Assembly (NCBI GenBank): GCA_029820295.1
Contig: JALGVA010000009.1
Coordinates: 1-58,191, forward strand
Length of the DNA stretch: 58,191 nt
Source of the DNA: Candidatus Zipacnadia bacterium
GTDB lineage: Bacteria > Armatimonadota > Zipacnadia > Zipacnadales > UBA5352
Reading direction: 5' to 3'
Shown: positions 784 to 58,191 of the stretch, piece after piece
How positions within the stretch are numbered: the first letter of the stretch is position 1
Layout: every line of letters begins with the position of its first letter
Notes under the pieces: generated by a model
Database searches by the model: none
The model's input: the letters and a program-made list of their open reading frames with translations, nothing else
Told to the model about the DNA's origin: nothing
Made by a program: the position numbers and the translations under genes

Positions 784-998
784 TAGCGGTCCCTCTCATC
801 CCGGATGTCGCTGGTATCGGCGCCCTTCGCGATCCCCCGTAGCTCGTCGAGCGAGCGCACCGGCACGAAGTGCATGACGCCGCCCAGCACGATGACCTGG
901 AGCTTCTGGCCGGGCTTGATGCCGAGCTGCTCGCGGACCTCCTTGGGGATGACCACCTGATACCGGCTCGATACCGTTGTCGCCGTCATTGGCCTCAC
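780..998 (-). CDS. vapB: AbrB/SpoVT/MazE-family antitoxin VapB
   Basis: 72 aa; VVIPKEVREQLGIKPGQKL is a swapped-hairpin AbrB-type motif. Its stop overlaps the vapC start. Confidence 0.75.
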   Translation of the reverse strand: MRPMTATTVSSRYQVVIPKEVREQLGIKPGQKLQVIVLGGVMHFVPVRSLDELRGIAKGADTSDIRDERDRY

Positions 999-1057
999 CG
1001 TAAGACGGGAATACGTTCGATGGCCCTATTATCATACCAGGCGCCGTTCAAAGTCAA

Positions 1058-2353
1058 TCACGTCTGCTGCCCGAAGTACTTCGCCGCCAGCTCGCGCACC
1101 TCGGCCATCTGCGCGTCGGGGATGGCGCGCCTAAAGGGCAGGTCGCTGAAGGCGCACTGATACGCCAGGTGCGCGAGGGCGTTGGCGTGCATCGCGATCA
1201 CCTGCGACGAGATCGACTGCAGATCGTCCAGGTGCGAGTGGTGGAAGTAGCGCGTCCCCGCCTGGTTCATGCGGTGGAAGAACACCGACGGCACGCCGTG
1301 GACGTTGAACGGGAACATGTCCGAGAACGGCGACACCTCCGCCATGACCTCGCCCGAGATCACCGGCGCCGCCGGGGCCATCAGCGCGCGCACCGCCGTC
1401 AGCAACCCCTCGGGCCCCGCCACCATGAACTGGTTGCGTCCGGTGATCGCCGCCATGCTGTCGAGGTTGAGCATCACCCGCGTGCGCCCGACCTCGTCCG
1501 GGTGCATGGCGACATACTGACGCGAGCCCTCGGAAAGCTGCTCCTCGGCGCCGAAGCCGCAGAAGCGGATGGTGCGCGCGGGCGTCTCGCCCAGCCCCGC
1601 CAACATGCGCGCGGCTTCGAGCATCGCCGCCACGCCCGAGCCGTCGTCCTCCGCGCCGACGCCCACCACGACGCTGTCGATGTGCGCGCCGATGTGCACG
1701 AACTCATCGCCCGCGCCGGGCAGGTCGGCGAAGACGTTGATCGACTCGCCCGGCTCACTCCACGCATCCGAGAACATGCGCACGCGCGCCCCCGGCTCCT
1801 GCGCGAGCCGCAGCCCGTCCCAATAGGCGATGCACAGTTGCGGCCTGCGCAGCGTGTCACGCCAGTCGAAGGGCGTGCCGATGGATACCGGCCAGTCCAC
1901 CGGGAAGCGATCATCCACCCACAGCACACCGACGCAACCGCAGTCCTGGAGCCCCTGGAGGGTGGCGCGATCGCCCGCGTGCGGCCCCCACACGAGCAGG
2001 ATCTTCTCCTCGACATCGTGCATGGCCAGGTCGGCGGCGGTGCCGTGATCGACGTAGACGACTTCCGCCTCGAGCCCCTCTTCAGGCGCGGCGGGTGAGT
2101 TGGCCACCGGGATCGCTGGCAGCACGCGCGGCTCCGGGCCGGGCACCTCGACGCGCGCGACCTCGTAGCCCCACAGGTCGAAGGGGAAGCTCTCGATCGT
2201 CACGTTGCTCAGGCCCAGCGCGCGCATGACCTCGGCGACGTGCTCGGCCGCCTCACGCTCGGCCTTGGACGCCCCGAGGCGATTGCCGATGTCGCGGCAC
2301 AGCACGCGCAGGGTCTCGTCGATGTTGGCGGGCGATGCGTTGAAGGTGGGCAT
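1058..2353 (-). CDS. M28-family zinc aminopeptidase
   Basis: 431 aa with HIDSV and GAEDDGSGVAAMLEAAR zinc-ligand motifs typical of peptidase M28. Confidence 0.7.
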   Translation of the reverse strand: MPTFNASPANIDETLRVLCRDIGNRLGASKAEREAAEHVAEVMRALGLSNVTIESFPFDLWGYEVARVEVPGPEPRVLPAIPVANSPAAPEEGLEAEVVYVDHGTAADLAMHDVEEKILLVWGPHAGDRATLQGLQDCGCVGVLWVDDRFPVDWPVSIGTPFDWRDTLRRPQLCIAYWDGLRLAQEPGARVRMFSDAWSEPGESINVFADLPGAGDEFVHIGAHIDSVVVGVGAEDDGSGVAAMLEAARMLAGLGETPARTIRFCGFGAEEQLSEGSRQYVAMHPDEVGRTRVMLNLDSMAAITGRNQFMVAGPEGLLTAVRALMAPAAPVISGEVMAEVSPFSDMFPFNVHGVPSVFFHRMNQAGTRYFHHSHLDDLQSISSQVIAMHANALAHLAYQCAFSDLPFRRAIPDAQMAEVRELAAKYFGQQT

Positions 2354-6433: not shown

Positions 6434-7498
6434 TCACTGCTGGCTCAGGATGTCGGTGTCCCGGGCGGCGGGTGGACGTTCGCCGAACCGGCGCGTCTGG
6501 ACATCTTCAGGGCCAGCGACGCCGCCGGCACGAGCGCGCCCGTGCCCGTGCGCACCATCGTCTGACAGCGGAGATGTGGCGACATCATAGTAGTCACCCT
6601 CCGGGTGGTACCGGATCAAAATGACCTCGACTCCCTTGGGGACGCCACCGTCCATGGTGCGGCCCATGACCTGGTGCAGCGTGCCGCCCTCGTCCTTGAC
6701 GTGCACCAGCCCGCGCGCGCCCTCGTGGATGCCGTAGACGCAGGTGCCCACGTGCCCAACCAGGTCCTCCTCGGTCACCGCGTAGGTCTCGCGCGTGGGC
6801 ATGATGCGGCTCAGACCGCGCGCCACCGTACCGGTAAGCATCAGCGACGTCAGCGTGGCCAGCGCCAAGGACGGCCAGAAGTACACCGCCGGGCCCCACG
6901 AGAACGGCAGCACATGCTCGAACAGCCCGTTGGCGATCAGCCCCGAGGCGCCGAAGAGCACCATCAGGCAGGTCATCAGAATCGACACCGGCACCTTGCC
7001 GAAGCCCAGCACCGACAGCGCTCGGATCAGCAGCGACGGCTGCTGCGCGACCACCTCGTGCGCCTCGTGCTCGACGCCATGGCCGGGCCCGTGCTCACCT
7101 GCCACGTCGTGCTCGGTCGCCACGTCATGGTCGATGTCGTGGTCCATGTCCACGTCATGGTCCACGTCCAGGTCATGGTCTACGTCGAGATCGTGATCCA
7201 CGTCCAGGTCATGGTCCATGTCGATGTCGTGATCGGCGCCGATGTCCAGGTCATGATCCATGTCCAGATCATGCGCCAGGTCCACGTCGTGCGTGAGATC
7301 GACGTCGTGCGCGAGATCGACGTCGTGGTCCATGTCCACGTCGTGGGCCAGATCGAGGTCATGGGAGAGATCGACGTCGTGGTCCACGTCGGTGTCGTGC
7401 ACCTCGCTGCCGAGGCCCACGGCGCTGAGCACCAGGTAGACGCCGGAGAGGGCGACCGGCGCGACGAAGATCAGGTTGTACCACTCCAGCAGGTTCAT
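6434..7498 (-). CDS. NfeD-like (YqiJ-type) membrane protein with a long His-Asp repeat region
   Basis: N-terminal TM, then about 100 aa of (H-D-[VLI]-D-[LMV]-x) repeats, then TM segments and a C-terminal NfeD-like OB-fold region (VGHVGTCVYGIHEGARGLVHV...). An AAGGAGG RBS precedes the ATG at 7498. It lies immediately upstream of the flotillin gene, the typical nfeD-flotillin pairing. Confidence 0.7.
   Translation of the reverse strand: MNLLEWYNLIFVAPVALSGVYLVLSAVGLGSEVHDTDVDHDVDLSHDLDLAHDVDMDHDVDLAHDVDLTHDVDLAHDLDMDHDLDIGADHDIDMDHDLDVDHDLDVDHDLDVDHDVDMDHDIDHDVATEHDVAGEHGPGHGVEHEAHEVVAQQPSLLIRALSVLGFGKVPVSILMTCLMVLFGASGLIANGLFEHVLPFSWGPAVYFWPSLALATLTSLMLTGTVARGLSRIMPTRETYAVTEEDLVGHVGTCVYGIHEGARGLVHVKDEGGTLHQVMGRTMDGGVPKGVEVILIRYHPEGDYYDVATSPLSDDGAHGHGRARAGGVAGPEDVQTRRFGERPPAARDTDILSQQ
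7093..7402. repeat. 12-nt tandem coding repeat (GTCCACGTCATG-like units, about 25 copies) encoding the HDVD repeats of the NfeD-like protein
   Basis: Periodicity is visible directly in the sequence: gtccacgtcatggtccacgtccaggtcatggtctacgtcgagatcgtgatc... Confidence 0.8.
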
Positions 7499-8427: not shown

Positions 8428-10143
8428 TCACGGCGCGCCTTCCTCCTCCTGCGCCATGCGCCCAAGCACCTGCTTCGCGCCGGCGGCCCCGGCACCTGCC
8501 CCCGCCGCGGCCTTCTCCAGCGCCGGCCGCGCGGGCTCGCCGATCTCCATCAGCAGGTGCTGGGCGCTCTCGCGCGTGATGCTGTCCTCGGCGCCGAGTG
8601 CCTCGATGAGCGCCGGCACCGCCGTCTCGCCCATCGCGGGCAGCGCCTCCCAGGCCGCGCGCGACCGCTCATCCCGCGAGCGAGCGCCCAGGGCCTCGAT
8701 CATCACCTCGACGCCCCGCGGGTCGCCGATCGCGCCCAGGGCCTCGATCGCCGCGCCGCTGGCGCCGCGCAGGTCGGCCCGGGCGAGCGCGATCAGCGGC
8801 TCCACCGCGCGCTCGTCGCCGATCTTCCTCAGCGCCTCCGCAGTCGCCTCGACCACATCGGTATCGCCGTGCTTGAGCAGCGGCACCAGCACCTCGACCG
8901 CGCGCGCGTCCCCCAGCTCGCCCAGGGCGATCACGATCTCGTCCACGGCCCACTCGTTGCAGTCGGCCAGGGCCGCGATGAGCGGCTCGACCGCACGTGG
9001 GTCGCCGATTCGCCCCAGCGCCTGGGCGGCGCGCGCCGGCCTCGTCGGGCCGTCCTCCTCCAGCAGGCCGATCAGGTAGGGCACCGCGCGCGCATCGCCG
9101 ATCTCGCCCAGGGCGATGATCGCGTTGACGTCCGCATTGACCCGGCGCTCTTCGTCATCCAGCAGCGCCAGCAGCGGCGCCACCGCGCGCGCATCGCCCA
9201 GATCGCCCAGGGCCGAGGCGGCCGCGCTGCGCACGCTGTACGCCGGGTCGTGGAGCATCGCCACCATCTCGTCGAGCGTGGTCGGGTCGGCCAGCTCGCC
9301 CAACCCCCTGAGCGCCTCCGCGCGCACGCCCTCGCTGCTGTGCCGCAGGGCGCTGAGCAGCGTGCTCCGATCGCGGGCGGAGCGATCGGCGGGTAGCTGT
9401 GTCGGGACCGTCTCCCCGGGCGGCAGCAGCCAGGTGATGGCCTTCGCGGCGGCGCTGCTCGCCCCGGGTGCGTCGAGCGCCATGACTTCCTCGAGCACCA
9501 CCCGCGCCCGCGGGTCCTGGATGTCACCCAGCGCCTCCGCCATCGCGCCTATGGGCAGCTCGGTCGGGTTGTACTCGTGCGGCGCCATCACGATCTGGCT
9601 GTCGGCGGGCGGCTCGACGGTCGCCACCGCCTCGGGGTCATGGCGCGCGATGCGCCGGCGCAACTCGCCGACGAGCGGTTCGACCGCGCGCTGGTCGTGC
9701 ATGCGGCCCAGCGCCCGCGCCGCCCGTGCCGCCACCATGGGGTCGTCGTGACGCAGCGCCCGCAGCAGCGGCTCGAGCGCCTCCTCGCCGGCCCGGCCCA
9801 GCACCTCCTGGGCCGTGTGCGCGATCCGCCCGTCCTCGTGGCCGAGCGCCGCGATGAGCTTCCGTATGCCCGCCGGGCCGCACCCGGCGAGGCCCTCGGC
9901 GACGCTCAGGTCCCCCGCCAGGAACTCGTCGGCGATGCGCTCCGCCCGCCGGGCGTCGCTCATGCGCATGAAGCCCGGTGCGGGCGCGGCCAGCCACTCC
10001 TCCTCCGTGACCACCAGGCGATCGGCCGCGAAGTAGATGATGACCGCGAGTACGATGGCGGCGGGGATGAACCACGGGCGGAATTCGACCGACCAGAAGT
10101 GCACCCTGGGACTGCTGCTGCGCTCTTCGTGTGTGGGCGACAT
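8428..10143 (-). CDS. membrane-anchored HEAT-repeat protein (PBS-lyase HEAT-like repeats)
   Basis: One TM near the N-terminus, then at least 10 repeats of the form ...ALGxIGDxRAVEPLIxxL.... Start chosen at MSPTHEER (ATG 10143) with a GAGGGGG RBS. Confidence 0.7.
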   Translation of the reverse strand: MSPTHEERSSSPRVHFWSVEFRPWFIPAAIVLAVIIYFAADRLVVTEEEWLAAPAPGFMRMSDARRAERIADEFLAGDLSVAEGLAGCGPAGIRKLIAALGHEDGRIAHTAQEVLGRAGEEALEPLLRALRHDDPMVAARAARALGRMHDQRAVEPLVGELRRRIARHDPEAVATVEPPADSQIVMAPHEYNPTELPIGAMAEALGDIQDPRARVVLEEVMALDAPGASSAAAKAITWLLPPGETVPTQLPADRSARDRSTLLSALRHSSEGVRAEALRGLGELADPTTLDEMVAMLHDPAYSVRSAAASALGDLGDARAVAPLLALLDDEERRVNADVNAIIALGEIGDARAVPYLIGLLEEDGPTRPARAAQALGRIGDPRAVEPLIAALADCNEWAVDEIVIALGELGDARAVEVLVPLLKHGDTDVVEATAEALRKIGDERAVEPLIALARADLRGASGAAIEALGAIGDPRGVEVMIEALGARSRDERSRAAWEALPAMGETAVPALIEALGAEDSITRESAQHLLMEIGEPARPALEKAAAGAGAGAAGAKQVLGRMAQEEEGAP

Positions 10144-18819: not shown

Positions 18820-19932
18820 TCACCCCAACGCCTCGCGCACGACCTCGCACACCCGGTCGATCTGCGCGTCGGTCAGCTCCGGGTACATCGGCAGCGACAG
18901 CACCTCGCTGGCCGCGCGTTCGGTCTCGGGGAGCGAGCCCTTGCCGTAGCCCAGGTCCGCCAGCGCCGCCTGCAGGTGGCAGGGCACCGCGTAGTGGATG
19001 GCGTGGCCGATTCCCGCCGCCGCGAGCGCCGCCGCCAGCTCATCGCGCCGCTTCGAGCGCACCGTGTAGAGGTGGTAGACCGACTCCGCCCAGTCCGCCA
19101 CCACGGGTAGCGTCAGGTCGTCGATGCCCGCCAGCGCCGCGTCATAGCGTGCCGCATGCTCGCGCCGCGCCTGGTTCCATGCGTCGAGGCGGCGCAGCTT
19201 GATGCGCAGCACCGCTGCCTGCAGCTCATCGAGGCGGCTGTTGTAGCCGATCATCTCGTGGACGTACTTCTCCAGACTCCCGTGCACGCGCAGCGAGCGC
19301 ACCCGCTGCGCGAGCGCCTCGTCGCCTGCGGTGACCACGCCGCCCTCGCCGTAGGCCGCGAGGTTCTTGCTCAGGTAGAAGCTGAAGGCGGCACCGTCGC
19401 CCAGTCCGCCCACGCGCCTGCCACAGTAGCGTGCGCCGTGGGCCTGCGCGGCGTCCTCGAGCAGGAGGATATCGCGGCCGGCGATCGCCTCGGCCAGCGC
19501 GCCCATGTCGGCGGGGTGGCCGTAAAGATGCACGGCCATGATGGCACGCGTCGCGGGCGTGATCGCCTCGGCGGCGAGTTGCGGGGAGATGCAGTAGGTA
19601 TGCGGGTCGATGTCCACCAGCACCGGCGTGGCGCCCGTCTGCACGATGGCCTCAATGGTGGCGATGAAGGTGAACGAGGTGGTGATGACCTCATCGCCGG
19701 GCCCAACATCGTGGGCGCGCAGCAGCAGGTGGAGCGCCTCGGTGCCGTTGCCCACCCCCACGGCGTGCGCGACCTCGGAGTACTGCGCCCACTCGCGCTC
19801 GAAGGCCTGCACGTTGGGCCCGAGGTTGAGCTGCATGCCGGTGAGCGTCTCGTCGAAGGCCGTCAGCACCTCGTCGCGGATGTCGAGATACTGCGACTTC
19901 AAATCAACCATGGGGATGTCCAAGAGTGGCAC
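18820..19932 (-). CDS. DegT/DnrJ/EryC1/StrS-family PLP-dependent sugar aminotransferase
   Basis: 370 aa with the family motifs, including SFYLSKNLAAYGEGG carrying the Lys-PLP site. Confidence 0.8.
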   Translation of the reverse strand: MPLLDIPMVDLKSQYLDIRDEVLTAFDETLTGMQLNLGPNVQAFEREWAQYSEVAHAVGVGNGTEALHLLLRAHDVGPGDEVITTSFTFIATIEAIVQTGATPVLVDIDPHTYCISPQLAAEAITPATRAIMAVHLYGHPADMGALAEAIAGRDILLLEDAAQAHGARYCGRRVGGLGDGAAFSFYLSKNLAAYGEGGVVTAGDEALAQRVRSLRVHGSLEKYVHEMIGYNSRLDELQAAVLRIKLRRLDAWNQARREHAARYDAALAGIDDLTLPVVADWAESVYHLYTVRSKRRDELAAALAAAGIGHAIHYAVPCHLQAALADLGYGKGSLPETERAASEVLSLPMYPELTDAQIDRVCEVVREALG

Positions 19933-20019
19933 ACCTCACATCGCAGGCGCGCGCGACGCGCGCCCGGCGGTTTGTGAGTTAGAGGTGCGCCCTGCGAAAA
20001 GGTTGCGCGAGTGTGGGAA

Positions 20020-22209
20020 TCAGCGCGTCAGCGACAGGTGCCGCACGCTGATGACGTCGATGAGCGAGCGCAGGCGTTCGAGGACGTGGTCGAGGTCCTG
20101 GCGGCGGCGGATGTCAAGCTGCAGCTCCAGCCGTGCCAGCCCGGCGTCGGTGGTGGTGGCGTTGGCGGAGGTGATGTTGATGCCGCACTCGGCGATAACC
20201 GCCGCGATATGCGAGAACAGGCCGACGCGATCCACGGCCACGATCTCGATGTCGTGGCGGAAGACCGAGGCCTGCTCGCCGGTCTTCCAGTTGAGCGGCA
20301 CCACGCGGTCGGGTTCGTTGAGGGCGTGGTAGCGCAGGTTCTTGCAGTTGCTGCGGTGGATGGTCAGGCCCCTGCCGCGGGTAATGTAGCCCGTGATGTC
20401 GTCGCCGGGCAGCGGCGAGCAGCACTTGCTCAGCCGGCACTGGAAGCCGTCGTCGCCATCGACGGTGATGGCCGGCGCGTCGGCGCGCGCGCGGCCGACC
20501 GCCGGGGTGTCTCCGAGAACCCGCCGGACCTCCTCGGCGAGGCTCGCGGGCTGCTCGTGGTCCTCCATCAACTCGCGCAGCACCGTGGCTGCCTCGATGT
20601 CGCCGAAGCCCACCGCGGCCAGCAGGTCATCGGTCTCCTTGAAGCCGAAGCGCTCCAGCACCTCGCTCAGGTCATCGAGGTCCACCAGCTCGCGCAGCGC
20701 CTGCGGGTAGTGCCCCAGCGCCTGGCGCAGCGCATCCCGGCCCGCAGCCACGTTCTCGGCGTGGACCTTCTCGCGCAGGTGCCGGCGGATCTTGGCCTTG
20801 GCGCGTGAACTCTTCACCAGCTCCAGCCAGTCGCGGCTGGGCTCCGCCGAGGGCGAGGTGATGATCTCGGCGATGTCGCCGTTGCGGAAGGTGTAGCTCA
20901 GCGGCACCTGGCGGCCGTTGACGCGCGCGCCGGTGATGTGGTGGCCGATCTCGGTGTGGATGCGGTAGGCGAAGTCGATGGGGCCGGCGCCCGCGGGCAG
21001 GTCGATGACGTCGCCGTCGGGGGTGAACACGAACACCTGATCGTTGAACAGGTCCATCTGGAGCAGCTCGAGGAACTCGTGGCTCTCGGTCAGGTCGGTC
21101 TCCAGCTCCAGCACCTGGCGCAGCACCGAGATCTGCTCATCGGCGCCGCGCGCGTCGCCGCCCTCCTTGTAGCGCCAGTGCGCGGCCACGCCGTACTCGG
21201 CGATGCGGTGCATCTCCCAGGTGCGGATCTGCACCTCCAGCGGCTGCTTGTCCGGCCCGATCACCTTGGTGTGCAGCGACTGGTAGCGGTTCGCCTTGGC
21301 CTTGGCGATGTAGTCGGTGAACATGCCCTGGATGGGCATCCACAGCTCGTGCACCAGGCCCAGCGCAGCGTAGCAGTCGGCGACCGAGTCGGTGATGATG
21401 CGGATGGCCGCCAGGTCGGCGATCTCGTCGAAGCTGATGTCCTGGTTGTCCATCTTCTGCGCGATCGAGTAGATGTGCTTGGCCCGCCCCTGGACGGTCG
21501 CGCTCACGCCCTCGGCCGCCAGCCGTCCCTGCACCGCCTGGCGCACCGCCTCGATCTTCTGCTCGCGTTCCTCGCGGCCCTGGCCCAGCTCGCGCGCAAT
21601 CCGGTAGTAGCGCTCGGGTTCAAGGTAGCGGAACGACAGGTCCTCCAGCTCCCACTTGAAGCGCCAGATGCCCAAGCGGTGGGCCAGCGGGGCGAAGATG
21701 TGCAGCGTCTCCTGCGCGGTCGCCACCTGCTTGTCCTCGTCGAGGGCGTAGAGCGTGCGCATGTTGTGCAGGCGGTCGGCGAACTTGATGAGGATGACGC
21801 GGATGTCCTCGGTCATCGCCAGGAACATCTTGCGCAGGTTGCCGGCCTGGCGCTCCTGGCGCGTATGGAACTTCAACCGGGTCAGCTTGGTCACGCCATC
21901 GACCAGCATTGCCACCTCGGAGCCGAACTCCTCCTCGATCTCCTCGAGCGTGGCGTGCGTGTCCTCGACGGTATCGTGCAGCAGCCCGGCGATGACGGTG
22001 GCGGGGTCGGCCTCGATCTCGGTGAGGATCTCGGCAACGGCGAGCGGGTGGGTGATGAAGGGGTGTCCGGTCTTGCGCGGCGGGTCATCGGCATGGGCGA
22101 CGGTGGCGAAGCGCCAGGCGGCCTCAAGCCGCGCGATCTCGGGCTCCGACCAGTAGCCCTCGACGCGGCTGAGGATGGCCTGCAGGCTCTCGGAGTGTGT
22201 GGTTGCCAT
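20020..22209 (-). CDS. relA: bifunctional (p)ppGpp synthetase/hydrolase RelA/SpoT
   Basis: 729 aa with an HD domain (HPLAVAEIL...HDTVED), a synthetase domain, and TGS and ACT C-terminal domains. Confidence 0.9.
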   Translation of the reverse strand: MATTHSESLQAILSRVEGYWSEPEIARLEAAWRFATVAHADDPPRKTGHPFITHPLAVAEILTEIEADPATVIAGLLHDTVEDTHATLEEIEEEFGSEVAMLVDGVTKLTRLKFHTRQERQAGNLRKMFLAMTEDIRVILIKFADRLHNMRTLYALDEDKQVATAQETLHIFAPLAHRLGIWRFKWELEDLSFRYLEPERYYRIARELGQGREEREQKIEAVRQAVQGRLAAEGVSATVQGRAKHIYSIAQKMDNQDISFDEIADLAAIRIITDSVADCYAALGLVHELWMPIQGMFTDYIAKAKANRYQSLHTKVIGPDKQPLEVQIRTWEMHRIAEYGVAAHWRYKEGGDARGADEQISVLRQVLELETDLTESHEFLELLQMDLFNDQVFVFTPDGDVIDLPAGAGPIDFAYRIHTEIGHHITGARVNGRQVPLSYTFRNGDIAEIITSPSAEPSRDWLELVKSSRAKAKIRRHLREKVHAENVAAGRDALRQALGHYPQALRELVDLDDLSEVLERFGFKETDDLLAAVGFGDIEAATVLRELMEDHEQPASLAEEVRRVLGDTPAVGRARADAPAITVDGDDGFQCRLSKCCSPLPGDDITGYITRGRGLTIHRSNCKNLRYHALNEPDRVVPLNWKTGEQASVFRHDIEIVAVDRVGLFSHIAAVIAECGINITSANATTTDAGLARLELQLDIRRRQDLDHVLERLRSLIDVISVRHLSLTR

Positions 22210-22429
22210 GGCCGGCGCGCGCCTCTCCGCCTCAACTTAGCCTCAACTAAGTATACCACGCCCGTGCCCTGATGCGCAACGGCTCCGGCCCTCGTGTTCT
22301 CTGCTGCTGTCTGCCGCTGTCTCCTGCTATCTGCCGTTCGCTGTCGTTCTTTGTGGTTCGCCGCCGTCCGGGTGCGTCCTGAGATTGTCGGCAGACAGCG
22401 CGGCGGTGCGGTGGGACGACCTCCTCACC

Positions 22430-22720
22430 TCCGGCCCGATCCCGGGCGACCGCGTCGTGTGCGGTCGCCCGGGATCGGGGCCCACGCATTACCCACATCT
22501 CGTGCGCGGTCGGGACTCCGGGCCATACGTCGTTTCCGGACGGAGGGTGAGGCGCGCCGGCGCCTCAGCTTCCATGCCGGCCCGGCCGTTGCGTCGTGGG
22601 CCGTTGGCGCTGCCGTCGTGCGCGAGCCGGCATGGAGTTCGCGCAGCGAACTCCCAACAGAAGCCCCGGGGGCTTCTGCATGGAACCTGACGCCTGCGCA
22701 ACACAGCCGCGCAGGCGTCA
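22430..22720. other. cluster of at least five perfect inverted repeats in the roughly 725-bp relA/rmlD intergenic region
   Basis: Stems: 19 bp at 22435-22479; 8 bp at 22548-22567; 9 bp GGAGTTCGC gca GCGAACTCC at 22634-22654; 10 bp at 22658-22678; 12 bp at 22688-22720. No plausible ORF is present. Confidence 0.5.
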
Positions 22721-22895
22721 CTCCCCCGTGCCACAAGGCGGCGCATCGCCTGTCCATCGCGCGGCCTCGCCGCAGCCGTGCCGACTTGTGGGTAATGCAT
22801 AGGGTCGGGACGGGGGAGGAGGCTGTTGCCGTCCGCCCCGCGTCACCCCTCGCTCATACCGACATTCCGGAGTCGCGCCCTGCCGTTCCCCTGCG

Positions 22896-22924
22896 TTGAC
22901 ATCGCCCCGGCAACCTGCTACGCT
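22896..22924 (+). promoter_or_regulatory. putative sigma70-type promoter giving a leaderless rmlD transcript
   Basis: TTGACA - 17 nt - TACGCT ends 9 nt before the rmlD ATG. There is no SD sequence. Confidence 0.3.
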
Positions 22925-22933
22925 GTCGGCGAC

Positions 22934-23839
22934 ATGAGGATCGGGGGACCGGCAACGGTGGCCGTCACCGGCGCGGCGGGCATGCTCGGCCAGGAGGTGG
23001 TCGCCACCGCGCCCGGATGGGCCACCGTGGTGCCGCTGACCCGCGTTGACGGCGATCTGAGCAGCGCCGACCAGGCGCACGCGGCCCTGCTTGGCGCCGC
23101 GCCCGGTGTCATCGTGCACTGCGCGGCATACACCGACGTTGACGGTGCGACCCGCGACCCCGAGCAGGCCTGGCTGGGCAACGCGCTGGCCACCCGACAT
23201 GTGGCCGAGGTGGCTGCGCTGGTGCACGCGCGCCTGGTCTACGTCAGCACCGACTACGTCTTCGACGGTACCGCCGCCACGCCCTACACCGAGCGCTCGG
23301 CGCCCCATCCGCTCAACCCCTACGGTGAGAGCAAGCTGGCGGGCGAGCGGGAGGCGAGTCGCGCGCCCGGGAGTGTGATCGTGCGTACCCAGTGGCTGTT
23401 CGGGCCGGGCGGGCACAGCTTCGTGCGCGCCATCCTGGAGGCCGCGCGGGCGGGCAAGCCGCTGCGCATCGTGGAGGACGAGCGCGGCTGCCCCACCTAC
23501 GCGCCCGATCTCGCCCGCGGCATCTGGCGGCTGCTCGAGACGCCCGCGACCGGCGTGGTGCATTTGACCAACGCGGGCGCCTGCAACCGCCTCGAGCTGG
23601 CCGCCGCGGCGCTCGAGCAGGCCGGGCTGACCGGCGTCGAGATGACCGGCATCCCGGGCAGTGAGTGGCCCGGCCCGACGGTACGCCCGCGCAACGCCGT
23701 GCTCGCCAGCGAGCGCCTGGAGGAGCTGGGCCTGCAGCCGCTGCGCCCCTGGCGGGAGGCGCTGCGTGAGTACGTGGCCGGGCTGTGCGACCGATGGGAA
23801 CGCGAGCCAGGAGTGGACGAGGCCGATGACCGACCGTGA
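22934..23839 (+). CDS. rmlD: dTDP-4-dehydrorhamnose reductase
   Basis: 301 aa with a Rossmann GAAGMLG motif and the YxxxK active site (PYGESKLAGE). Confidence 0.75.
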   Translation: MRIGGPATVAVTGAAGMLGQEVVATAPGWATVVPLTRVDGDLSSADQAHAALLGAAPGVIVHCAAYTDVDGATRDPEQAWLGNALATRHVAEVAALVHARLVYVSTDYVFDGTAATPYTERSAPHPLNPYGESKLAGEREASRAPGSVIVRTQWLFGPGGHSFVRAILEAARAGKPLRIVEDERGCPTYAPDLARGIWRLLETPATGVVHLTNAGACNRLELAAAALEQAGLTGVEMTGIPGSEWPGPTVRPRNAVLASERLEELGLQPLRPWREALREYVAGLCDRWEREPGVDEADDRP

Positions 23840-24866
23840 CGGACGGCCGTGGCGGGCGCGGGCGCCCGTACGGATCGATCTGGCCGGTGGCTGGAGCGAC
23901 GTTCCGCCCTTCAGCGCGGAAGTTGGAGGCGCGGTCGTCAATGTCGCCATCTCGCGCCACTCCTACGCCACGCTGTTGGCCGGGGAGCCGGGCGAGTTCA
24001 TTCTCGAGTCGGCCGACTACGACGAGTACATTCAGGCCCGCGACATCCGCCAACTGGAGTACGACGGCTCGCTGGACCTGCTCAAGGCCGCGGTGCGGCG
24101 CATGGGGCTGGACATGGGCGGGCACCTGATCACGCGCGTCGAGGCGCCGCCCGGCTCGGGTACCGGGTCGAGCGCCTCGCTGGGCGTCGCACTGGTGGGG
24201 CTGCTCGATGCCATCAAGGGCGGGACCATGTCGCGCTGTGAGATCGCCGCGCTGGCCAACCTGTTGGAGACCGAGGAGTTGGGCATCGAGGGCGGCACGC
24301 AGGACCAGTACGCGGCCGCCTGTGGTGGCCTCGCCTACATGACCTGTGGCGATCGGGAAGTCACGGTTGAGCAGCTCAGGCCCTCGGCCGACTTCCTGCT
24401 GGAGTTCGAGAAGTCGCTGCTGCTGGTCTACACCGGCAAGTCGCGGCTCTCCGGCGACATCATCAGCTCGGTCATGGGCGCCTACCGCCGCGACGAGGCG
24501 GCGATGTCGGAGCCGCTGATGAATCTGCGCGCGGCCGGCTCGCTCATGCGTGAGGCTGTGGTCGCCGAGGATCTGGGGCGGGTGGGTGAGGTGCTGTGCT
24601 TTAACTGGGAGAACCAGAAGCGGCTCCACGCGGAGATGACCACACCCAAGATCGAGGCGCTGATGGGAGCCGCGCGCCGGGCCGGGCTGCTGGGGGGCAA
24701 GGCCTGCGGGGCAGGTGGCGGCGGCTGCATTGTGCTGTTGTGCGAGCCCGACCGGGAGCACATCGTGCGTCGCGAGGTGGAGGACCTGGGCGGGCGCTGC
24801 ATCGAGTTTACCTTCGACTTCGACGGGCTGCGCGTCTGGCAGCCGGTCACCCCCACGGGCAGGTGA
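23826..24866 (+). CDS. GHMP-family sugar kinase (heptose-7-P kinase / fucokinase-like)
   Basis: 346 aa with GHMP motif [13 protein letters not shown]. It overlaps the rmlD stop. Confidence 0.7.
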
Positions 24867-26128
24867 AGCCCTTGTACTTCGACATCGCCGACATGTCTCT
24901 GGCCGGGCAGGGCAAGCTGCGCATCGAGTGGGCCGAGATGCAGATGCCGGTGCTCCGGCAGATCCGCGAGCGCTTCGCGCAGGAGCGGCCACTGGAGGGG
25001 CAGCGCCTGGCGGCCTGTCTGCACGTGACCACCGAGACGGCCAACCTGATGCGCACCCTCAAGGCCGGCGGGGCCGAGGTGGCGCTGTGCGCCAGCAACC
25101 CGCTGTCCACTCAGGACGACACCGCCGCATCGCTGGTCGAGGACTACGAGGTGCCTGTCTTCGCCATCCGCGGCGAGGACCGCGACACCTACTACCAGCA
25201 CCTGAACTCCGCGCTCGACATTGAGCCCACCATCACCATGGATGACGGCGCCGACCTGGTCTCCACCATCCATCAGGAGCGCACCGACCTCGCTCCCGCG
25301 ATACTCGGGGGAACCGAAGAGACCACCACGGGTGTCATAAGACTCAGGAGCATGGCCGCGACCAACGAGCTGCGCTACCCGATCATCGCGGTTAATGACG
25401 CGATGACCAAGCACCTCTTCGACAACCGCTTCGGCACCGGCCAGAGTACTATCGACGGCATCATCCGCGCCACGAACGTCCTGCTGGCGGGCAAGGCGGT
25501 CGTGGTGTGCGGCTTCGGCATGTGCGGCCGTGGCGTGGCCATGCGCGCCCGCGGGATGGGCGCGCGCGTGATTATCTGCGAGGTTGACGCCCTGCGCGCG
25601 CTCGAGGCGGCCATGGAGGGCTACCGCGTGCTGCCGGTGGCCGAGGCCGCGCAGGTGGGCGACATCTTCGTGACCGTCACCGGCGACACATCGGTGATCC
25701 GCGGCGAGCACATGGCCGCCATGAAGGACGGCGCGATTATGTGCAACGCCGGGCACTTCGACGTTGAGATCGACCTCGAAGACCTGCGCACCGCAGCCGA
25801 GGACACACGCACCGTGCGCCCGTCGCTGGAGGAGTACCGCATGGCCGACGGCCGGCGCCTCTACTTGCTGGGCGAGGGCCGGCTGGTGAACCTGGCCGCG
25901 GCCGAGGGACACCCGGCCTCGGTCATGGACATGAGCTTCGCCAACCAGGCGCTGTGCTCGGAGTTCATCGCCGCGCAGACCACCAGGCTCGCGCGCGACG
26001 TGCACACCGTGCCCGAGCACATCGACCGTGAGGTCGCGGAGCTGAAGCTGGCGTCGATGGGCGTGAGCATCGACGAGCTGACGGACGAGCAGAAGGAGTA
26101 CCTGAGCGGCTGGAGGCAGGGCACGTAA
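24863..26128 (+). CDS. ahcY: adenosylhomocysteinase
   Basis: Motifs [28 protein letters not shown] and [30 protein letters not shown] (NAD binding). The GTG start at 24863 overlaps the preceding stop; ATG 24892 is an alternative. Confidence 0.85.
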
Positions 26129-45488: not shown

Positions 45489-46150
45489 GCGAAGACTGGG
45501 AGTTCCCGCCCGCCGCGTTGTTCACGACCGTTGCAGTCGCGCCATGGCGTAAGCGCTCGGCGCGCATCGACGGCAAACTCGGCGACTGGGACGACGGCCA
45601 GCTCATGGCGCCGTTGGGCGAGCTGGCGGGCGGCGAGGAGTTCGCGCGGGTCTACCTGGCCTGGAACGAGGGCGGGCTCTACGTCGCGGTCGATGTCCCC
45701 AGGGACGAGCCGGTGGTGACCAACCGGCAGAACCCCCGCGCGGGCGATGCGCTGGAGCTGCTCATCGACACTCGCGGCGGGCGCACCAGCCACCGCGCCA
45801 CGCAGTTCTGCTACCACCTGTTCGTCCTGCCCGCCCGGCCGGGCAGGTCCCGCGGCGACCCGATGATCTGGCAGGCGCGCATGCGGCGGGCGTTGCAGCG
45901 CTCGCCCGAGCCGGACTTCGGGGCGATCCGCCTGGCGGCCGGCCTGCGCGATGACGGCTATGCGGTCGAGCTGGCCTTCCCGCCCGAGTCGCTGCACGGC
46001 TACGAGCCTGCGGAGGGGCTGCGCATCGGCATGGCGGTCGTCGTGCACGACATCCGGCGCGGCACGCAGTACTGGGGCACCTCGCGCGACTTCCCCTGGG
46101 ATCGCGACCCGAGCACCTGGGGCCTCGTCGAGCACGGCCCAACCGCATGA
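45485..46150 (+). CDS. cytoplasmic CBM9-like / DOMON-like beta-sandwich protein (hypothetical)
   Basis: 221 aa; ARIDGKLGDWDDG...LYVAVDVPRDEP...DALELLID...GYAVELAFP resembles the CBM9_1 domain. No signal peptide. Its ATGA start overlaps the uvrA-like stop. Confidence 0.45.
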
Positions 46151-46197: not shown

Positions 46198-46219
46198 CGG
46201 CCGGGCTGAAGCCCGGCCG
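46198..46219. terminator. GC hairpin between convergent genes
   Basis: CGGCCGGGC tgaa GCCCGGCCG. Confidence 0.4.
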
Positions 46220-46343
46220 CTCCATGACGGCGACGACCGGCGCGCCGCCGTCGCTTGCGGCCTGCGGCTCGCCGTTGCCCCGAACGACAACGGCGGCGCC
46301 TTCCGGCGCCGCCGCGTCCGCCGCTGATATCAGCCCAGCGGCG

Positions 46344-54402: not shown

Positions 54403-54550
54403 TGGGGATGCCTCCCTGCATCGTCCGTCGTGTCTGCGGAGGTATTCGCCCTCGTGCCTCGCGTGCCCTGCGCGGGCGAGGGTAACGGCACACGGCAGAG
54501 ACGGCATGCAGGGGAGGGCTTCTTCTTGGAAGAAGCCGCTCGCAGATCAC

Positions 54551-54613
54551 TCGCTACGCTCACGATCACCCGGGAGTTCGCTACGCTCACGATCACCCGG
54601 GAGTTCGCTACGC
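54551..54613. repeat. 27-bp direct tandem repeat (2.3 copies) in the divergent promoter region between the E2-like and TIM-barrel genes
   Basis: TCGCTACGCTCACGATCACCCGGGAGT occurs twice, then TCGCTACGC once. The last unit merges into the palindrome GGAGTTCGC tac GCGAACTCC (54599-54619). Confidence 0.7.
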
Positions 54614-54929
54614 GAACTCCGTCCCCCACGCTCGCTTCGCCTGCGCCGCTGCGCACTTCGTGCGCCCGCGGGCGGGGCGTGCCCGGGGGCGACGGTGCCC
54701 CGGGGGAGTGCTGCGCCGTGGCGTCGGCTCAGGCCTCGCGCCCGGGCGGGGACGTCCGGGCCACGGACGCGACGGGCGCCCTTGGGCGAGGTACGACGGC
54801 TGAGCGAGGAGGTCGCGCGGCTCCGGTGGCGAAGGCACGGAGCGCGGTGGTGAGGCGCGTGGGTAGGTGGAGGCCGCTCTCGCCCCGCGGCAACAGCGCA
54901 CGCGAGATCACTTCGACAGGGTGATTTTC

Positions 54930-58117: not shown

Positions 58118-58191
58118 CGGCGGGGCATGGGGCATGGGGGATGGGGCATGGGGGATGGGGGATGGGGGGGGGGGCATGGGGGATGGGGCAT
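58118..58191. repeat. G-tract heptamer microsatellite (GGGGCAT / GGGGGAT units, at least 10 G-tracts), truncated by the window end
   Basis: ggggcatggggcatgggggatggggcatgggggatgggggatgggggggggggcatgggggatggggcat. Confidence 0.6.

Follow-up and report, generated by a model that had tools for sequence, protein, structure and literature searches.

A decayed Tn5-like miniature element, very probably nested in a palindromic repeat, in the hairpin-rich relA-rmlD spacer of a Candidatus Zipacnadia bacterium

Introduction

Insertion sequences (ISs) of the IS4 family produce target duplications of about 10 bp, and those of the IS10, IS50 and ISPepr1 subgroups have ends that begin with 5'-CT (PMC2266710); both end sequences of Tn5 have also been published (PMC3347997 and PMC2566895). 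Bacterial MITEs (miniature transposable elements with inverted repeats), among them Correia/NEMIS, Nezha, Chunjie and MITEAba12, are short, non-coding and intergenic, carry terminal inverted repeats, target duplications and foldback structure, occur as dispersed and sometimes tandem copies, and are mobilised in trans by related ISs. Repetitive extragenic palindromes (REPs) and bacterial interspersed mosaic elements (BIMEs) have neither terminal inverted repeats nor target duplications and are moved by RAYT enzymes. REPs are in turn targeted by ISs such as IS1397, of the IS3 family, and ISKpn1, in which a mobile element lies in the loop of a pre-existing palindromic repeat and the flanks appear both direct and inverted. 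Here we analysed the spacer between relA and rmlD in a 58-kb stretch of DNA (58,191 nucleotides, hereafter the window) from a Candidatus Zipacnadia bacterium, in which an initial annotation had noted a dense cluster of perfect hairpins. The spacer is very probably a nested mosaic of inserted repeats, in which a decayed IS50-like MITE lies inside a palindromic repeat that we denoted repeat X.

The window element and its family resemble the bacterial MITEs named above in being short, non-coding and intergenic and in their terminal inverted repeats, target duplications and foldback structure; several copies per contig, some of them tandem, occur in other hosts of the family, and mobilisation in trans by a related IS would be a further likeness. 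They differ from these MITEs in that their ends come from another parental IS group. They share with the REP-targeting ISs the insertion into the loop of an extragenic palindrome and the direct and inverted appearance of the flanks, the REP-like part being the landing site only (repeat X here, hairpins in other genomes). The likeness to IS50 and Tn5 lies in 19-bp inverted ends that start with 5'-CT and end in ...ACA-AGT or ...ACA-TCT, in the target duplication of 9 bp and in the preference shown for symmetric targets; in Tn5, the inner variant ...ACAAGT marks the outside end and ...ACATCT the mosaic end. In contrast to IS50 and Tn5, the window element measures 321 bp and lacks a transposase gene. 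The core that is conserved reads TTACCCACA instead of TTATACACA, and Armatimonadota and many uncultured lineages are among the hosts, in place of Proteobacteria.

Results and discussion

A hairpin cluster in and around an inserted element

The relA and rmlD genes are divergent, with a spacer of 724 bp (22210-22933), and Pfam matches agree with the names first given to them. All five perfect hairpins (stems of at least 8 bp) that had been reported within 290 bp are present, with stems of 19, 8, 9, 9 or 10, and 12 bp.

20020-22209, minus strand: RelA/SpoT gene (Pfam)
22934-23839, plus strand: RmlD gene (Pfam)
22435-22479: perfect hairpin, stem 19, loop 7, within the target repeat X and outside the MITE
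22548-22567: perfect hairpin, stem 8, loop 4, inside the MITE
22634-22654: perfect hairpin GGAGTTCGC-gca-GCGAACTCC, stem 9, loop 3, inside the MITE; palindrome common to 54600-54620
22658-22678: perfect hairpin CAGAAGCCC-cgg-GGGCTTCTG, stem 9 with loop 3 or stem 10 with loop 1, inside the MITE; absent from the homologue in L003
22688-22720: perfect hairpin, stem 12, loop 9, inside the MITE; kept in L003 with one compensatory A-T to G-C change

The window as a whole (G+C 70%) contains 43 perfect hairpins, or ~0.74 per kb. Five within 290 bp compare with ~0.21 expected, about 23 times the average (Poisson P ~3e-6, inferred from the window count). The spacer had also been described as free of open reading frames (ORFs). 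This is not strictly so, since mechanical ORFs of up to 201 aa cross it, but the five mechanical ORFs in the spacer gave no third-position GC signal and no Pfam match, and thus no sign of a coding region or pseudogene. A scan for promoter and terminator consensus sequences gave no match.

Four of the five hairpins lie inside the element at 22482-22802, and repeat X is found on both sides of it.

22482-22802, no strand assigned: MITE of 321 bp, non-autonomous and IS50-like (IS4 family), delimited by its inverted ends and target duplication, with a homologue in L003
22482-22500, plus strand: left terminal inverted repeat CCACG-CATTACCCACA-TCT, its terminal 5 nt degenerated from CTATG
22784-22802, minus strand: right terminal inverted repeat, read inward CTATG-CATTACCCACA-AGT; plus-strand end CATAG at 22802
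22473-22481, no strand assigned: left 9-bp copy of the target duplication, GATCGGGGC, in the register predicted by the family
22803-22811, no strand assigned: right 9-bp copy of the target duplication, GGTCGGGAC, in the register predicted by the family
22402-22481, no strand assigned: left part of repeat X, including the 19-bp-stem hairpin at 22435-22479
22812-22842, no strand assigned: right part of repeat X, beyond the MITE

The two 19-nt ends match at 15/19 positions and have an identical 11-nt core. The duplicated copies GATCGGGGC and GGTCGGGAC match at 7 of 9 positions, exactly in the register of the family, and each differs by one base from GATCGGGAC. The latter sequence occurs once, uninterrupted, in a paralogous empty site without the element in L202, a contig of a strain that shares 99% identity with the window in its TIM-barrel protein. 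The empty site reads ...GCGGTCGCCAGA-GATCGGGAC-AGGGGAGGAGG... (more fully, ...GCGACCGCGTCGTGTGCGGTCGCCAGA-GATCGGGAC-AGGGGAGGAGGCCGTTG...) and lies in a second copy of repeat X in the same species (L202:7235-7341, just beyond the right end of the window), which aligns unbroken to 22402-22481 joined to 22812-22842. Given this continuous alignment across the joined flanks, the 19-bp hairpin belongs to repeat X, the target of the MITE insertion. Repeat X is ~110 nt long and palindromic and was seen twice in this genome or species, the stem of the L202 copy being only 8 bp, versus 19 bp in the window.

A BLAST search of the spacer against relatives recovered a homologue at L003:13444-13773 (Armatimonadota MAG056, a metagenome-assembled genome (MAG)), which occupies a convergent spacer lying 1.3 kb downstream of the relA gene there. 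The block shared by the two sequences is 311-330 nt long, starts with CATTACCC(A/G)CATCT and ends with TGTGGGTAATG. Because the same bounded block is present at different loci in the window and L003, the four hairpins lie in a discrete unit. Both copies hold the 12-bp hairpin, and the GTTCG...CGAAC hairpin is weaker in L003 (CGTTC-tgc-GAACG).

The source of the window is a metagenome assembly, so that misassembly or a chimera might have made the inverted repeats. However, a contig from an independent assembly of the Joint Genome Institute (JGI), L001, which is present in two samples, has the same spacer and is 99.94% identical over a 6.6-kb block (18968-25572), and therefore the repeats are not an assembly artefact. 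Homologues of the element in many unrelated assemblies and in finished plasmids also speak against an artefact, the chance of which we consider practically negligible. A difference that might favour it lies elsewhere in the window: 98 bp at 18870-18967, inside a DegT-like coding region downstream of relA, are missing from the otherwise 99.9% identical L001, whose version of the gene is annotated as a 544-aa DegT+DUF488 fusion; the cause is either an indel between strains or a difference in assembly.

Affiliation with IS50 and Tn5

Autonomous relatives of the element were found by a tblastn search of the IS50R transposase against plasmids, which returned distant genes annotated as 'IS4 family transposase'; three of these have flanks built like the ends of the element.

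L193, Sphingopyxis plasmid: 1536 bp, ends CTTTC-AATTACCCACA-ACT, perfect 9-bp duplication AGGGTCGCC
L192, Burkholderia plasmid: 1517 bp, ends CTCAG-GATTACCCACA, 10-bp duplication located in the loop of a hairpin
L194, Pseudosulfitobacter plasmid: 1531 bp, ends CTTGC-AGTTACCCACA-AGT, no duplication seen, inverted repeat extending to 37 nt

These three ISs share the end form CTNNN-(N)(N)TTACCCACA, and their transposases are 24-27% identical to that of IS50R. The Tn5-type DNA-binding domain (PF14706) was detected in 3/3 proteins, the Tn5 dimerisation domain (PF02281) in L192 and L194, and the DDE domain (PF01609) in L193 and L194. Since plasmid ISs with Tn5-type transposases have ends nearly identical to those of the window element, the element is a MITE of the IS4 family and falls into its IS50 subgroup. 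The MITE end CTTGTCATTACCCACATCT is identical to the Tn5 mosaic end CTGTCTCTTATACACATCT at 12/19 positions, and the annotated IS50R starts with CTGACTCTTATACACAAGT. The 5'-CT start and a duplication of ~9-10 bp are both found here, with CTNNN in the family and CTATG at the right end of the window copy; the left end has degenerated to CCACG.

A family of related elements in metagenomes

The exact pattern CATTACCCRCA-N275-305-TGTGGGTAATG was searched in JGI metagenomes and matched 88 metagenomic loci, in hosts with a G+C content of 35 to 73%. The consensus end of the family (its ends are also denoted CTNNNCATTACCCACA) is CTNNN-CATTACCCACA-WSW, and the whole element reads 5'-CT NNN CATTACCCACA WSW ... 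WSW TGTGGGTAATG NNN AG-3'. The interiors are unalignable with that of the window copy, though they are rich in inverted repeats. An invariant 11-nt core around unrelated interiors suggests that MITEs arose repeatedly and independently from related ISs, or that their interiors are often replaced. Several copies on one contig were found in other hosts (L087, L094, L110, L114 and L144), as were shorter forms of 36 to 150 nt. In L087 (host 35% GC), a 150-nt short form with 48% GC occurs once alone and once as three head-to-tail copies sharing a junction (6737-6910 and 9040-9530).

Target duplications were tested on 75 non-redundant copies, anchored on the boxes. A perfect 9/9 direct repeat starts exactly 5 nt outside each box in 15 of the 75, and duplications of at least 8/9 were found in 18 real copies, compared with ~0.25 in shuffled left/right pairings; a few further copies have repeats of 10-11 nt or slightly decayed duplications. 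Some duplications have no inverted symmetry at all (e.g., AGCAGGCTG and TCTTTTTAG), and these asymmetric examples exclude an artefact of palindromic flanks. The duplicated sites are otherwise dyad-symmetric, with complementary bases at positions 1-9 in 15/18, at 2-8 in 13/18 and at 3-7 in 14/18, but at positions 4-6 in only 4/18. The DNA outside the duplication is often complementary as well, and uninterrupted versions of the target hairpins are present in the same contigs. As the complementarity continues beyond the dyad-symmetric duplication, the insertions are mostly at the tips of stem-loops. Such a marked preference is, to our knowledge, not among the textbook features of Tn5.

Some other explanations for parts of this pattern were discarded. 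The covarying flanks (cttgt/acaag, ctttc/gaaag and ctatg/catag) could be taken for the closing helix of an RNA, but they are direct 9-bp duplications of dyad-symmetric targets. Lone ends that might be the starts of transposase genes are truncated copies. Almost all of the 18 matches to CTTGTCATTACCCACA in viral contigs were due to chance or coding sequence, and a spacing of 2160 nt shared by viral contigs was the same phage region in both orientations (L177 and L186) together with a one-mismatch match in L176.

The neighbours of the family copies are unrelated housekeeping genes; among 129 ORFs, no Pfam family was enriched and no transposase was found. Gene orientation around the copies was random (~13 convergent, 12 divergent and 26 tandem). 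A short-query BLAST search against plasmids returned solo ends only, in Meiothermus and Nostoc plasmids, and the ends of the nearby ISMesi2 differ. The solo ends, CCTTGTCATTACCCACAT(C/T)T, have no partner within 3.5 kb and were located at L188:3496-3520 (Allomeiothermus silvanus pMESIL01) and L189:3496-3524 (Nostoc carneum plasmid3), which places family ends in replicons of Deinococcota and Cyanobacteria too. A literature search for the core sequence found unrelated primer sequences only. Taken together, this is a family of Tn5-like MITEs that is widespread in environmental and uncultured bacteria.

The spacer in relatives and the structured-RNA alternative

RelA-based loci from GTDB genomes place the window among MAGs of Armatimonadota, candidate division WS1 and 'Ca. 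Zipacnadia'. The two genes are divergent neighbours in these MAGs as well, and the initial annotation was right that their spacer is far larger than the promoters need: it measures 724 bp in the window, 234 bp in L015 (RelA 91% identical) and 167 bp in L002, the excess being repetitive, palindrome-rich extragenic DNA. The element is missing from the orthologous spacers of L015 and L002, and with the MITE removed, the window aligns with L015 across the junction. The features outside the MITE are as follows.

22210-22281, minus strand: conserved relA-proximal leader or promoter region of ~70 nt including TATACT, aligning with L015
22896-22924, plus strand: conserved rmlD promoter-like element TTGACA-17-TACGCT, an invariant block in comparison with L015 and L002, untouched by the MITE
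22300-22358, plus strand: imperfect 10-nt tandem repeats with a CTGTC core, lineage-specific and missing from L015

The TTGACA-17-TACGCT element ends 9 nt before the rmlD ATG (22896-22936) and is almost invariant in L015 and L002, which suggests a leaderless or near-leaderless rmlD mRNA. The block of imperfect 10-nt direct repeats, first placed at 22301-22350, was recovered by Tandem Repeats Finder at 22300-22336 (period 10, 3.7 copies, 77% matches) and was extended to 22358 by a repeat finder. It consists of five or six repeats spaced one helical turn apart, with an inverted copy at 22389-22399, and could be the product of slippage or a direct-repeat array for protein binding.

The initial annotation had offered a large structured non-coding RNA as one account of the region; in this view, or in that of a long, structured 5' leader belonging to relA or rmlD, the hairpins would be RNA helices. 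Predicted folding is indeed strong (foldback of the MITE, with z = -5.95 in the window and -8.3 in L003), and one compensatory change separates the 12-bp stems of the two. However, the element is missing from the orthologous spacer of the closest relatives, its homologue occupies an unrelated convergent spacer, and the interiors of family members are unalignable. The stems are perfect Watson-Crick palindromes, the strand evidence from G-U (versus A-C) pairs is contradictory between the window and L003, and the conserved promoter-proximal sequences of relA and rmlD lie outside the element. The covariation check that had been proposed could draw on just two homologous copies with one compensatory pair. 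No Rfam 15 family matched the window at its gathering score, and the region searched at E up to 10 gave only weak matches to hairpins (E at least 0.15, the best at 0.15-0.3 being hairpin noise). The RNA account is thus unsupported, and we regard it as extremely doubtful.

A search of 39 family loci against Rfam gave only one real match, to the Acido-Lenti-1 RNA motif (RF01687), in flanks and with nothing in the elements themselves. Both outward flanks of the L089 MITE match this motif, with 38.2 bits (gathering score 37) and 29.6 bits, at 980-1025 (minus strand) and 1330-1375 (plus strand), starting exactly at the terminal 5 nt of the element. Weaker matches were found near or inside other copies, including L099 and L100. 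Acido-Lenti-1 has no match in the window and is not the element itself; instead of an RNA gene, it may be a hairpin repeat that in some hosts is a landing site or a passenger.

The shared palindrome and a second expanded spacer

The 9-bp-stem palindrome at 22634-22654 had been reported to recur with a different loop at 54599-54619, where it terminates a 27-bp tandem repeat. Both observations were reproduced, the second copy being one base off.

54600-54620, no strand assigned: second palindrome copy GGAGTTCGC-tac-GCGAACTCC, in the other expanded divergent spacer and also in strain L202
54551-54613, plus strand: perfect 27-bp tandem repeat (2.3 copies) that the palindrome closes; shorter by one unit in L202

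None of 100 shuffles contained any match to the palindrome. On the opposite strand, 22634-22655 and 54599-54620 agree over 22 nt with one mismatch. Around the two copies, a search for extended homology gave a local alignment score within the shuffled range. In 372 kb of clade DNA, the core GTTCGC-N3-GCGAAC was found at 3 loci, versus 0.13 expected. One of these is a tandem array of 100 nt x 3 (96% matches) at L200:20226-20530, in a ~940-nt spacer upstream of a DegT-like gene; its units each contain GGCGTTCGC-GTA-GCGAACCCC and a second hairpin. The L200 contig comes from the same metagenome sample as the window and from a lineage with an 84% identical TIM-barrel protein.

Recurrent palindromes of this kind recall the REP/BIME-like family proposed in the initial annotation. 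In such a family, the hairpins, especially GGAGTTCGC-N3-GCGAACTCC, would be short host-maintained units, propagated by recombination or a RAYT-type enzyme and with a role in termination or in the stability of mRNA. The 22-nt match within the window, the excess of the core in the clade with its array in L200, at least two copies in the species of repeat X with its 19-bp hairpin, and the expansion of several hairpin-rich spacers in the clade all fit such a family. However, the unit that is bounded, duplicated and found across genomes has terminal inverted repeats and a 9-bp duplication, neither of which REPs have. Furthermore, REPs form many short units, tens or hundreds of them, whereas the GGAGTTCGC palindrome is found at two or three loci only (2 copies in 58 kb), with no extended similarity around the two copies of the window, and no RAYT gene was noticed, although no search aimed at one was made. 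What stands of the proposal is the repetitive, palindrome-rich nature of this extragenic DNA; the family unit is the element with its 19-bp inverted repeats and 9-bp duplication, and not the GGAGTTCGC palindrome. We consider host-maintained REP/BIME-like units a rather unlikely explanation of the hairpins. There is limited support, from the recurrence of the core, for a separate layer of small palindromic repeats or for short-patch copying between hairpins, and such copying may account for the 22-nt identity between the MITE interior and the distant spacer.

The second spacer (54403-54929), between an acyltransferase-like gene and the TIM-barrel gene, is 527 nt long in the window, 500 nt in L202 (3270-3769), 422 nt in L197 (5138-5559), 187 nt in L198 and 206 nt in L200, an expansion of ~300 nt in this lineage only. 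L197 has two hairpins at the same positions with different stems, and the block is missing in L198 and L200. A perfect 21-bp dyad in two divergent spacers might also be the operator of a dimeric transcription factor, the two divergent promoters marking a small regulon, and L197 does keep a hairpin at the same position of the second locus. However, the stem in L197 differs (GACCGC-TGC-GCGGTC), so that its shape is kept and not a protein recognition sequence, and the entire block is missing in more distant relatives. The first copy is part of a mobile element missing from the relatives' locus, and no regulator gene adjoins either site. An operator is therefore very unlikely.

Two further repeat-rich sites were observed in the window. 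Four perfect hairpins lie within 150 bp at 46198-46343, in the convergent spacer of two genes with their ends at 46150 and 46344, and are probably terminators. A heptamer tandem repeat (GGGGCAT / GGGGGAT, ~10 copies) occupies 58122-58191, and its copy pattern differs at L202:6960-7020.

Origin of the spacer

According to the nested-insertion explanation, an ancestral spacer of ~230 bp would first have gained lineage-specific DNA, including the ~110-nt repeat X with its 19-bp hairpin, and the MITE would then have inserted into repeat X. A Tn5-type DDE transposase acting in trans would bind both ends, excise the element and insert it with 9-bp staggered cuts, with a probable preference for dyad-symmetric targets at stem-loop tips. 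The four hairpins are the foldback-rich interior of the MITE. There is no sign that the hairpins serve relA or rmlD, the conserved promoter-proximal sequences of both genes being outside the insertion.

Several observations weigh against this explanation. The 58-kb window shows a single copy, 15 kb of strain L202 shows none, and apart from L003 no copy was found at 13 other relA loci of relatives. The window copy is decayed at its left terminus (CCACG) and in its duplication (7/9), and is probably immobile. The Tn5 transposase, used as a tblastn query, had no match in the window or in 190 loci; the transposases with such ends are on Proteobacteria plasmids, and none was found in the sequence of the organism or phylum that was searched. 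In addition, the interior contains four perfect local hairpins, a number that hardly any other copy of the family reaches, versus none in 58/78 other copies (family mean 1.4 per kb), and the MITE identity alone fails to account for this wealth of perfect palindromes. Nor is the 22-nt identity with 54599-54620 accounted for by transposition of this element.

A profile search with nhmmer for more copies in the window and relatives gave none save a weak match in L008 (E = 0.09). The spacer upstream of relA in L008 is more than 900 nt long and hairpin-rich (L008:9040-9700), with segments similar to the core hairpin that the MITEs of the window and L003 have (TTCCAYSCCGGCCC ... GGGCCGG...TGGAA) and no recognisable terminal boxes.

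Significance

A MITE is an ordinary kind of selfish DNA, and the interest of this one lies mainly in the wide spread of its family and in its targeting of hairpin tips. What looked like a candidate structured RNA or regulatory region is replaced by a nested transposon insertion, with the promoter-proximal sequences of relA and rmlD intact. The signature CTNNN-CATTACCCACA ... TGTGGGTAATG-NNNAG, together with a 9-bp duplication, flags a Tn5-like MITE family in uncultured bacteria. Such MITEs can interrupt assemblies, pass for structured RNAs in comparative screens and give rise to spurious ORFs, and their preference for hairpin tips is a natural example of structure- or symmetry-directed targeting of the Tn5 type.

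We tentatively speculate, as a possibility that is still doubtful, that these elements form a so far unrecognised cross-phylum superfamily of Tn5-like MITEs aimed at stem-loop tips, and that small perfect palindromes are a mobile or conversion-prone layer of their own in the Armatimonadota/WS1 clade. If so, REP-like hairpins and terminators would act as landing pads for the superfamily, and GTTCGC-N3-GCGAAC and repeat X would expand the intergenic regions of this clade.

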